Shown here one piece after another: positions 42,001 to 45,000 of a stretch of DNA of 48,944 bases. Every line of letters begins with the position of its first letter. Position 1 is the first letter of the stretch. Origin of the DNA: a virus (taxonomy: Duplodnaviria > Heunggongvirae > Uroviricota > Caudoviricetes). The stretch lies in the IMG/VR virus record IMGVR_UViG_2718217715_000009. One strand, 5' to 3'. The position numbers were made by a program.

Positions 42001-45000
42001 TTCATCGCCATGCGGATGTGCTCATGTTTGATTTTCATGAATCATTTGCCTCTTGATGCTTCGGGTATGATCGTTTTCGTCATTTGGTTGCTTCATCGAC
42101 ATATTCTGCGAATAACATGACGAGCGTCGTAAGTATGTCCAATCAACATCAGGACGAAGTTCTTCACACAGGACACCACCTTTTGTTGCTCGTTCAATCG
42201 CAGGACATCTCTCAGCAGGCAACTGACGTACACCTTTGATCCATTGATTTACGCTTGGAGGAGATACACCTAAAAGCCTAGCCATTGCTGATTGCCCACC
42301 GACAACAGCACAAGCTCGTTTGAATGAATAGTTATCTTTTTTCATCGAATGAACTCCAAAAAACACACAATAATATTAGGCTTAGCCTAATGCAATTGTC
42401 AATAGGCTATGCCTAACGCTTCGAGAGTAGGTATTGCCTAATGCGATGCACATAGGAGACTATTAAGCAATGCTTAGTGGTAAAGACTTAGGCCGAGCGA
42501 TAGAGCAGGCCATTAACAAAAAAATTGCATCAGGAGCCGTCAAATCAAAGGCGGAAATCGCACGTCATTTCAAAGTCCAACCACCATCAATCCATGACTG
42601 GATTAAGAAAGGTTCGATAAGTAAAGACAAACTTCCAGAACTATGGCGTTTCTTTTCTGATGTGGTTGGTCCAGAGCATTGGGGGCTTAACGAATACCCC
42701 ATACCAACCCCATCCACTTCAGATACAAAAAGTGAACTTTTAGACATAAACAGCCTTTATCAAGCCGCCTCTGATGAAAAAAGAGCAATTGTGGCTTTCC
42801 TCTTATCTGGAAATGCTACGGAGCCTAGTTGGGTTGATCATGACGTTCGTGCCTACATTGCCGCAATGGAAATGAAGGTAGCTAACTATCTGAAAAATCA
42901 AGAATCAAAACGGAAAAGCCAGAACATCACCAAGACAGGAACTTAAACTTATATGGTCCGACGGGAAATTCCTAGTTCCCGTTAGTTAACTCCTACTACC
43001 TCTCCCACAAACCATCACCTATTAGGTCGCACCCAAATCATTAGGCGTAGCCTATTGACAAGCAATTAGGCATTTCCTATAGTTTTCCCATACCAACCCA
43101 TCCCGTCCCACACAATACAGGGCAATACCTAGAGTTACCCGGCAGTGGTCAGGGATTAAGTAGCCAGCCCGAGGCGTAAGAACATGACGGCAGGGTTCAA
43201 CTTTAACTATGCAGCAGGTTTTTGTTCCGCTACCCCGGCGTTAAGGGGATATGAGGTCAGCATGGATACTCTTGATCTTGGCAACAACGAATCTCTGGTG
43301 TGCGGCGTGTTTCCCAACCAGGACGGCACGTTCACCGCGATGACGTATACCAAAAGCAAAACGTTTAAAACCGAATCTGGCGCGCGTCGCTGGTTAGCAA
43401 GAAACTCTGACTAATGAAATCTGGTAATTAAGGAATCCTCCACGGGGGGAGAGTGGTGCACACGCGCCGGACACAAGCAAGCATCCGGCATGCTCTTTAA
43501 CAATCTGGATATCCATAACAGTAAAAATCTACAGATTGCCGTTCAGTTTTCTGGCCAACTCTTCAATAGATGGAGGTGATACGTAATCCGGATTTTTATT
43601 CATAAGAAACTGATCTTCACAGTACAGGCACCTGCTTTTATGAAAAAATTCATATTCTCTAACCGGGAATGGCTGAAGTATCGATACTATCTTTTGTCCA
43701 AAACATTTTGGACAAAGATGCATGATTATGCTGCCGCCGTTCACGGTTACCTCCTTCGAGTACACAAAAGTTCCCGACTCAAGTTGGCTAAGGATATAAC
43801 CTTCCGTCTGAGCCTCAAAGTTTTCAAATTCTGCAATTTTAGCTTTGAGAGAAGCATTTATTTCTTGATAAGTGCCCACCAGCTCAACGAGAGACACGCA
43901 TTCGCGCTGAATAGATGCAAGCTTTGAGTTCAGTTCACCAATAGCCGCATTTACTTCAGCTTGAGTTTTTGCCTCGTTCATTAGTTTTGCAATCTGGGCG
44001 GTTTCACGAATAGCCGTCATTGCTGCCGTTAATTCAGCGATCACATTCAATACTCTTATTGTTGTTGGGGATATCCAGATTAACAAGATCCTTGTTGTTG
44101 GGGAATAACGGGGACCACCTCGCCTGACGTGGTAAAAAGCAGGCACACAACACGAAAGCACACGGCGAGGTTGCTGGTTCATAGATAGCCTATCGTTAAA
44201 TTTTCGTCGACCGTGCGCTTCCGGTTGTGGCAGTCCGCGAAATGGCGCGGCGGTAAGTATGGCTGGGGTTTCCTCCATTGCTCCAGAAAATGCACCGGGT
44301 TGTCAGGTTGACCATACGCTTAAGTGACAACCCCGCTACAACGCCCTCTGTTATCAATTTTCTGGTGACATTTGGCGGTATCAGTTTTACTCCGTGACTG
44401 CTCTGCCGCCCTTTTTAAAGTGAATTTTGTGATGCGGTGAATGCGGCTAAGCGCACGCGGAACAGTTAAAACCAAAAACAGTGTTATGGGTGGATTCTCT
44501 GTATCCGGCGTTAATTGTTAACTGGTTAACGTCACCTGGAGGCACCAGGCGCTGCATCACAAAATTCATTGTTGAGGACGCGATAATGGAAACGTTATTA
44601 CCAAACGTTAATACGTCTGAAGGTTGTTTTGAAATTGGTGTCACTATCAGTAACCCTGTATTTACTGAAGATGCCATTAACAAGAGAAAACACGAACGGG
44701 AGTTATTAAATAAAATATGCATTCTTTCAATGCTGGCCCGTTTACGTCCGATACAAAAAGGATGCTGGCAATGAATACAGCATTTGCACTTGTTCTGACA
44801 GTTTTTCTTGTTTCCGGAGAGCCAGTTGATATTGCAGTCAGTGTTCACAGGACAATGCAGGAGTGTGTGACTGCAGCAACCGAACAGAAAATTCCCGGTA
44901 ACTGTTACCCTGTCGATAAAGTTATTCACCAGGATAATAACGAAATCCCGGCAGGTCTTTAAAACAGTTCCGTAATAAACATCCGATTTCATTCTTATAT

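Follow-up and report, generated by a model that had tools for sequence, protein, structure and literature searches.

What kind of gene lies inverted inside the dicB operon of a lambdoid prophage, at the position that the Rac prophage gives to sieB? The question is raised by a 48,944-nucleotide stretch of DNA held in IMG/VR as IMGVR_UViG_2718217715_000009 (Caudoviricetes), which we refer to as the window and whose positions and strands are used throughout. The window corresponds to a complete lambdoid E. coli O157:H7/O55:H7 prophage that has integrated beside potC, and the stretch around the gene is 100% identical to NZ_CP017442.1. An initial annotation, made from the sequence alone, had singled out the inverted gene as an uncharacterised candidate for exclusion or defence and had recognised no family for its product. 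We find that the gene almost certainly encodes a homologue of Rip1, an anti-phage protein described in 2026 and present in PDB entry 9oox. Sequence comparisons support reading it as a defence gene, a new member of a known family at 27-31% identity to the members that have been studied; since the protein's homology to the defence protein Rip1 extends over its full length, we regard a defence gene as the most plausible interpretation.

Results

Assignment to the Rip1 family

The coding sequence (CDS) that we assign to the family lies at 43529..44044 on the (-) strand and specifies 171 aa between a GTG start and a TAG stop, as judged from the open reading frame (ORF), the call of the Prokaryotic Genome Annotation Pipeline (PGAP), conservation, and profile and fold matches. 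Searches of Pfam, NCBIfam and PADLOC gave no match above noise for the protein: the coiled-coil matches in Pfam (TMF_TATA_bd, HAUS5 and others) fell far under the gathering thresholds, as did the PADLOC REase_I and NCBIfam matches under theirs, and we attribute both sets to composition noise. PHROGs places the protein in phrog_1244, function unknown (1.4e-55). The PDB was more informative. A phmmer search with the single sequence returned chain 9oox_L, "ring interacting pore 1 (Rip1)", at E 3.6e-7, and a profile built from 38 family sequences matched 9oox, which contains HK446 Rip1 with the T6 small terminase and holds 12 Rip1 chains, at E 6.7e-24, the match covering profile positions 6-152 (147/172) and chain residues 16-160 (145/164). 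Foldseek against the PDB found significant matches only to 9oox_M and 9oox_L (probability 1.0, target-normalised template-modelling score 0.72, 28% identity), with E 3e-7 for 9oox_M and 0.27 for the next match. Rip1 was the only structural match, and none of the family searches matched the protein to a regulator or housekeeping family.

Comparison with individual phages leads to the same family. BLASTP gave 27% identity to HK446 gp37 (5e-13) and 30% identity to Pseudomonas JBD30 gp30 over residues 1-153 (1e-19), and the motifs GxxVY, CxxC[FY], [ST]ILQ and CxxC are common to the window protein, HK446 Rip1 and JBD30 gp30. HK446 gp37 and JBD30 gp30 share no more than 31% identity with each other, and the window protein therefore falls within the normal spread of the family. 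Against phage genomes, tblastn found HK446 gp37 (27%), HkaP of HK620, HK629 and HK630 (31%), a gene of Pseudomonas Mu-like phages including DMS3, JBD30, D3112 and MP38 (30%), and closer relatives in Klebsiella phages (51%) and in temperate coliphages from ECOR strains (93%). Homology over the full length, the predicted protomer fold, the size and helices without a transmembrane segment, the CxxC...CxxC pattern and the stand-alone antisense gene all agree with membership of the Rip1 family. The family that the initial annotation could not name is available from literature of 2026 and from 9oox.

Protein architecture and comparison with named systems

Rip1 is known to us chiefly through a review, which presents it (citing Patel et al., Nature 2026) as a single prophage protein that acts against phages and is not toxic alone (PMC13434031). 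Escape mutations map to the portal in Pseudomonas phages and to the small terminase in E. coli phages, and cryo-electron microscopy (cryo-EM) shows 12 monomers around an 11-mer small terminase ring, with an N-terminal part that is an amphipathic helix and a C-terminal half that touches the ring (PMC13434031). Liposomes leak dye when exposed to the complex, which also perforates cells, resulting in late abortive infection (PMC13434031), and a meeting report is consistent with this account (PMC12908700). In the literature that we covered, which does not extend to the primary Rip1 paper, we found no experiment on the subfamily of the window protein, and a search for literature on HK446 and hkaP returned nothing relevant.

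An AlphaFold model built on the family alignment (mean pLDDT 89.6) has two helices, at residues 2-24 and 28-79, and after them a domain rich in beta strands. The helical region, residues 2-79 (43808..44041 on the (-) strand), would by homology to Rip1 correspond to the amphipathic, pore-forming half (PMC13434031). The initial annotation had described an N-terminal coiled coil of about 75 residues; the helices are indeed predicted, yet a plain structural coiled coil no longer describes them well, given that the corresponding helices of Rip1 form pores (PMC13434031). Their hydrophobic moment reaches 0.41 and is similar to that of HK446 Rip1, HkaP and JBD30 gp30. The C-terminal domain, residues 84-150 (43595..43795 on the (-) strand), is beta-rich, carries the CPKC (111-114) and CLYC (139-142) knuckles of a putative zinc ribbon and, again by homology, may be the ring-binding half. 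The four cysteines C111, C114, C139 and C142 (171-aa numbering) are invariant in 38 homologues, and the spacing between the knuckles is CPKC-x24-CLYC, one residue less than first reported. No hydrophobic or transmembrane segment is present, the highest 19-residue Kyte-Doolittle mean being 1.13, and the window protein, HK446 Rip1, HkaP and JBD30 gp30 all share a length of 164-171 aa, four similarly placed cysteines and the lack of a transmembrane segment.

Conservation along the protein is uneven. Family members agree well in the N-terminal helices, in the LKAKIAEFENF segment and in the core of the zinc ribbon, whereas column identity drops to 0.38 in the inter-knuckle loop 126-138 and to 0.36 in the tail, against 0.59-0.74 elsewhere. 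Alleles of 92-93% identity differ by 12-13 substitutions, of which 7 fall in residues 129-145. The hypervariable loop is a candidate specificity determinant, a surface that may decide which phage rings the protein recognises; variation in the loop and tail fits a defence protein in an arms race, with a surface that tracks phage proteins. We also note that the most variable part of the family, the inter-knuckle loop, lies within residues 126-150 (43595-43669).

HK446 Rip1 (gp37, YP_007111990; PDB 9oox) is the best comparison. The two proteins are alike in length (164 versus 171 aa), in the two N-terminal helices and four-cysteine C-terminal domain, in the motifs VY, CxxC[FY], SILQ and CxxC, in being encoded by a lone antisense gene in the sieB slot, and in having the upstream element GCCTG..ACCACNTCAGGCNNGGTGG and, ahead of the start codon, a C-rich motif in two copies. 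They differ in sequence (27-28% identity), in start codon (ATG in HK446, GTG in the window), in the leader repeat (TACCCCTACAG in HK446, TCCCCAACAACAA in the window) and in the C-terminal tail, which is longer in the window protein and has a predicted extra helix at 160-168. HkaP of HK620, HK629 and HK630 is similar in identity (31%), length (164 aa), antisense slot between an N-like gene and cIII, and upstream element, but belongs to a different subfamily, and its annotation records no function. JBD30 gp30, found also in DMS3, D3112 and MP38, shares 30% identity over residues 1-153, length class, cysteine pattern and antisense orientation; unlike the window gene, it lies between the terminase genes and not in the immunity/early-left region, and it lacks a sieB-type upstream element. 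The review places the Pseudomonas Rip1 between the small and large terminase genes (PMC13434031), the location of JBD30 gp30.

Two further systems share features without being related in sequence. SieB of lambda, P22 and Rac has the slot, the inverted orientation, a homologous promoter region and a prophage-expressed role in exclusion or abortive infection in common with the window gene, but it falls in a separate BLAST cluster (that of P22 SieB), the window protein has no Pfam SieB match, and SieB starts with a visibly hydrophobic stretch where the window protein is soluble and has no hydrophobic segment; the initial annotation was right to set SieB aside. RAZR (ring-activated zinc-finger RNase; Zhang et al. 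2026) is a small zinc-finger immunity protein that oligomerises around phage rings such as the portal (PMC13017515). The window protein is predicted to share this ring-sensing concept, but no RAZR chain is among its PDB sequence or fold matches, and the effector of RAZR is an RNase whereas the window protein has no nuclease domain.

Reading frame and start codon

The minus-strand ORF ends at 43529 and was initially read from the ATG at 44020, giving 163 aa. PGAP/RefSeq instead calls WP_001509524.1 (43529-44044, 171 aa, GTG start), labelled "hypothetical protein". The true start is probably the GTG at 44044, eight codons upstream of the ATG, because it is the PGAP call, because the N-terminus MIAEL(S/T)AAM is kept across 38 homologues, because GTG stands at the aligned start position in 14/16 homologous genes of other genera, and because the Citrobacter homologue has an in-frame TGA four codons 5' of its GTG. 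Read from the sequence, a Shine-Dalgarno-like AAGAG at 44053..44057 on the (-) strand, 8 nt 5' of the GTG, is kept as (A/T)GAG in 16 homologous leaders. An upward extension of the frame to 44278 (249 aa) was considered and rejected, being stopped in Citrobacter and conserved as DNA and not as protein; given the conserved GTG start and the Citrobacter TGA, this longer frame is therefore an accident of the window sequence.

Homologues occur widely in the Enterobacterales; they form 109 clusters at 90% identity and come from genera that include Escherichia, Salmonella, Citrobacter, Klebsiella, Enterobacter, Cedecea, Edwardsiella and Arsenophonus, and from Serratia symbiotica. Searched against 1.84 billion representatives, the family profile matched 3,341 clusters (50% identity), 1,800 of them at E <= 1e-10, and the best 150 of the 3,341 matches are mostly 145-180 aa long and align end to end. 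In comparison with homologous genes, substitutions in the frame of the gene are most frequent at codon position 3, then 1, then 2; against two 93%-identical genes the counts at positions 1/2/3 are 7/3/19 and 7/5/18, corresponding to 17-18 synonymous and 11-13 non-synonymous codon changes. By this measure the gene is under purifying selection. Of 5,426 complete E. coli genomes, 338 (~6%) carry an intact copy, and among those of O157:H7 and O55:H7 the ORF is uninterrupted, with 99-100% conservation. That a real gene runs against the dicB/early-left operon, as first proposed, is borne out by the ORF, the PGAP call, the homologues and the codon-position pattern. The competing antisense ORF at 43640-43927 ((+) strand, 95 aa) fails the coding tests: it has no family match and no conserved ATG, and its first codon position is the most variable position of the sense frame.

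Leader, predicted promoter and module borders

Homology between genera has sharp edges, at ~43491 and ~44145, and 5' of the GTG it covers a leader of about 100 nt that is 74-85% identical in all but one diverged homologue, compared with roughly 56-66% for the CDS (values that we derived from substitution counts). The ~575 bp of non-coding DNA first described 5' of the gene contain the gene's own conserved promoter region (44045-44145, ~100 bp) and, from ~44135 on, sequence that matches the DicF-precursor region of K-12 Qin at 93% identity. The leader of HK446 rip1 is 87% identical to the region 5' of sieB in lambda and P22, and in the P22 record this sieB-leader homology overlaps the annotated sieB promoter and the mapped RNA start. 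Aligned with P22, whose sieB -10 is TAAACT, the window has a predicted -10 hexamer TAATCT at 44077..44082 on the (-) strand, a predicted transcription start near 44070 and a 5' untranslated region (5'UTR) of ~26 nt.

The direct repeat TTGTTGTTGGGGA that the initial annotation had pointed out is present in exactly two copies and is the reverse complement of TCCCCAACAACAA, the form on the coding strand, which occurs twice in 14/16 aligned leaders. Copy 1 (44092..44104, (-) strand) lies over the predicted -35 region and copy 2 (44059..44071, (-) strand) at the predicted transcription start/5'UTR, paralleling the doubled ACCCCTACAG of P22. The 5' border of the module is formed by a conserved upstream element, GCCTGCTTTTTACCACGTCAGGCGAGGTGG (44115..44144, (-) strand), with a GCCTG/CAGGC hairpin, which is common to sieB, HK446 rip1 and many other genes discussed below. 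Its 3' border is GGATATCCAGATTGTTAAAGAGC (43492..43514, (-) strand), the first 13 nt of which are an inverted repeat of 44069-44081. In most homologues GGATATCCAGATTGTTAAAGAGC is followed by an intrinsic terminator (GCGTCC-loop-GGGCGC-TTTTTT); the window has at this position a GCCGGA-N12-TCCGGC hairpin with no T-run (43466..43489, (-) strand).

The ORF is flanked by a 13-nt perfect inverted repeat, AATCTGGATATCC at one end and GGATATCCAGATT at the other, with the palindromic core GGATATCC (43502-43514 and 44069-44081). We considered and rejected three accounts of these sequences. Pairing of AATCTGGATATCC in the leader with GGATATCCAGATT in the 3' element is not upheld by covariation: both are conserved across genera, but the changes in four of the compared loci (L010, L012, L013 and L022) are non-compensatory. 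A transposon-like insertion with target duplication of GGATATCC is at odds with a module that runs ~65 nt and 22 nt past the repeats. A structured RNA leader has no energy support, with RNAfold z-scores of 0.2 to 1.0 for the window family; those of the HK446 and P22 leaders reach ~-2.3. Rfam has no match in the leader of the gene.

The sieB slot and its prophage context

The genes around the inverted gene follow the Rac layout, as the initial annotation had recognised. By annotation, ydaT-like and helix-turn-helix (HTH) genes on the (-) strand precede racR (42470-42946, (+)), which is followed by a strong pL-like, sigma-70-like promoter at 43055-43083 ((+); confirmed at 11/12 consensus positions), the DUF1391/ydfA gene (43262-43414, (+)), the inverted gene, DicF RNA (44360-44411, (+); 77 bits in Rfam), dicB (44586-44774, (+)) and then a DUF1482 gene, an exonuclease gene, xis and int. 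In K-12 Rac the order is racR, ydaG, ydaF (DUF1391), inverted sieB, the small RNA KilS (kilS) and kilR, so the two share the succession of racR, DUF1391, an inverted gene, a small RNA and a division inhibitor. The slot holds sieB in lambda, P22 and Rac, rip1 in HK446, between N and a ral-like anti-restriction gene and antisense to the early-left operon, and hkaP in HK630, antisense between an N-like gene and cIII; gp30 of JBD30 is likewise antisense, between the small and large terminase genes. The stand-alone, antisense arrangement was also checked in PhiR49_1, alongside HK446, HK630 and JBD30. In other genera an exonuclease gene lies 5' of the homologue on the opposite strand (five genera), with repressor/HTH genes 3' in two of them.

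A 661-bp segment 93% identical to 43492-44152 also adjoins cI of CPS-53-like prophages; relative to K-12 Qin (window 43408-44134; locus L023 1993-2500) the module stands in place of ydfB-ydfC; and in a swine E. coli prophage (locus L022) ydfC is kept and a 151-aa rip1-like variant follows it. In several O157:H7 genomes (e.g. ATCC 35150; H87-H89) identity ends at window position 44170 and an exonuclease annotation follows, a pattern that suggests deletion of dicF and dicB with the rip1-like gene kept. Elsewhere in the prophage, two genes for type III effectors (espN and nleL) lie within 1-43400 together with hokD, a toxin gene of the YdaT family and one copy of IS2. Between the 3' end of DicF and the start of dicB there is a sub-threshold Rfam match to STnc100 (44409-44618, (+); 29.5 bits, gathering threshold 47).

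A possibly portable upstream element

The 19-mer ACCACNTCAGGCNNGGTGG within the upstream element occurs once in the window, at 44115-44133, where ~0.03 occurrences are expected by chance, and the IMG/VR contigs that contain it number at least 120. An E. coli locus (L022) has two copies (3513-3531 and 4447-4465), one before the rip1-like gene and one before a zinc-binding gene of the ECs_2282 family. Among the matches listed, the first ORF 3' of ACCACNTCAGGCNNGGTGG, typically 19-75 nt away, belongs to more than 35 unrelated families: SieB (14 instances), a 106-108-aa membrane protein (13), the ECs_2282 family (12), an 81-aa family (10), the Rip1 family (8) and many singletons. In the 40 nt that follow the element, GGTGG directly followed by TAnnnT, resembling an extended -10 (TGGTATCCT), is present in 35 of 77 distinct instances among the same matches.

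After this -10-like motif, and overlapping it, comes an inverted repeat with a C/A-rich loop, the 3' arm of which abuts the Shine-Dalgarno sequence and whose arms vary between cargo families yet stay complementary. The upstream element has a hairpin of its own, and here the Rac sieB copy (locus L147, 2050-2172) has a stem GCCCGG...CCGGGC in place of GCCTG...CAGGC. In viral contigs the CAGGC arm goes with GCCTG in 107/116 cases and the CCGGGC arm with GCCCGG in 105/116, and none are crossed; this compensatory change therefore supports the hairpin. For the inverted repeat by the promoter, the reverse complement folds more stably (-9.18 versus -7.72 kcal/mol, p = 3e-5). In the stem of the upstream element, seven GCCCAG variants would give G·U pairs only on the early-left-operon strand, and the count of 7 A·C variants to 1 U·G leans in the same direction. 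In this set of mutually related sequences, these values hint that the inverted repeat may work on the early-left-operon strand. Some Rac-type copies (loci L149, L155, L157, L170 and L176) have the element and first hairpin, show no obvious cargo ORF and appear to continue directly into the next gene, and may represent empty slots.

It is tempting, if still doubtful, to see the window gene as one cargo of a portable lambdoid "exclusion-gene cassette" made of a ~30-nt hairpin element, a promoter, and an inverted repeat with covarying arms at the transcription start. To our knowledge a portable exclusion-gene cassette of lambdoid prophages has not been described before.

Discussion

We propose that the window protein probably works as the Rip1 family does, as sensor and effector in one stand-alone abortive-infection defence. 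In a lysogen the early-left promoter would be repressed and the gene transcribed the other way from a sieB-type promoter of its own, and the protein, to judge from the family, would be soluble and harmless before infection. Late in infection by a foreign phage, once an oligomeric small-terminase or portal ring has been made, the C-terminal zinc-ribbon domain would bind around the ring, about twelve copies would be gathered, and the N-terminal amphipathic helices would form a membrane pore, so that the cell would be killed or lysed before progeny mature. What we observe is homology in sequence and fold over the full length, conservation of motifs, the setting of the gene and purifying selection, and from these we infer expression, trigger, oligomerisation and pore formation for the window protein.

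Several points weigh against this proposal. PADLOC and NCBIfam hold no model for the family, so that no curated threshold has been passed. With only 27-31% identity to characterised members, the trigger specificity and the pore function would be carried over by analogy. The amphipathicity of the N-terminal helices is moderate (moment ~0.4) on a simple, uncontrolled measure. The putative promoter matches the consensus weakly and is assigned by the P22 alignment only, and a promoter scan listed none on the gene's strand near it; nor did a terminator scan call an intrinsic terminator 3' of the gene, where the canonical one is missing.

The low identity to studied members also bears on a different account, in which the protein has the Rip1 fold but a diverged function, sensing some other phage or host assembly or serving the prophage itself, for example in lysis timing or packaging. 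The hypervariable C-terminal loop and tail and the very large and diverse family, with its 3,341 representatives at 50% identity, would also be in keeping with such divergence. We nevertheless consider it rather unlikely, as the N-terminal helices, LKAKIAEFENF and the zinc-ribbon core are well conserved and the gene, like those of the studied members, points against the lytic operon, which fits a defence gene expressed in the lysogen better than a role in the lytic cycle.

It is less probable still that the gene is a silent relic in a decaying prophage, either unexpressed or without function by now. The portal, major capsid and major tail genes carry frameshifts in the matching RefSeq record, and the exonuclease gene there is interrupted by an internal stop, which may reflect real decay or sequencing errors; the module's canonical terminator has been replaced, and the promoter match is weak, with none listed by the scan on the gene's strand nearby. 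Against this, the gene is intact in the same prophage whose portal, capsid, tail and exonuclease genes are annotated as broken, it is highly conserved in O157:H7 and O55:H7, synonymous changes outnumber non-synonymous ones against 93%-identical relatives, and its promoter region is better conserved across genera than the CDS. Finally, it is most improbable that the real gene is the plus-strand ORF 43640-43927, whose frame is largely open in homologues but whose ATG is not conserved and whose codon positions clash with the sense frame, or the 249-aa frame, which is open in the window but stopped in Citrobacter with an upstream extension conserved as DNA only, or that the protein is a regulator which binds nucleic acids through its zinc ribbon, for although zinc ribbons often bind nucleic acids there is no regulator family match and the sole structural match is Rip1.

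Rip1-like defence thus being the preferred reading, the gene is a good defence-gene candidate that is no longer novel as a family: the initial call of a defence candidate was correct and has been overtaken by the literature, and "uncharacterised" no longer holds, given that HK446 gp37 from the same slot has a cryo-EM structure. The assignment provides a probable function for a protein encoded in ~6% of complete E. coli genomes, O157:H7/O55:H7 included, and identifies an annotation gap for the Rip1 family, which no Pfam, NCBIfam or PADLOC model catches in this protein. It also presents sieB and rip1 as genes that can stand in for one another in a single prophage slot, behind a promoter region that they share, and the conserved upstream element offers a cheap route to further candidate exclusion genes. 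If the cassette proves real, the element would be a shared regulatory device, acting for example through antisense pairing of loop to 5' end, by which early-left transcripts would shut off the defence gene at induction, and it would serve as a search handle for new defence genes.

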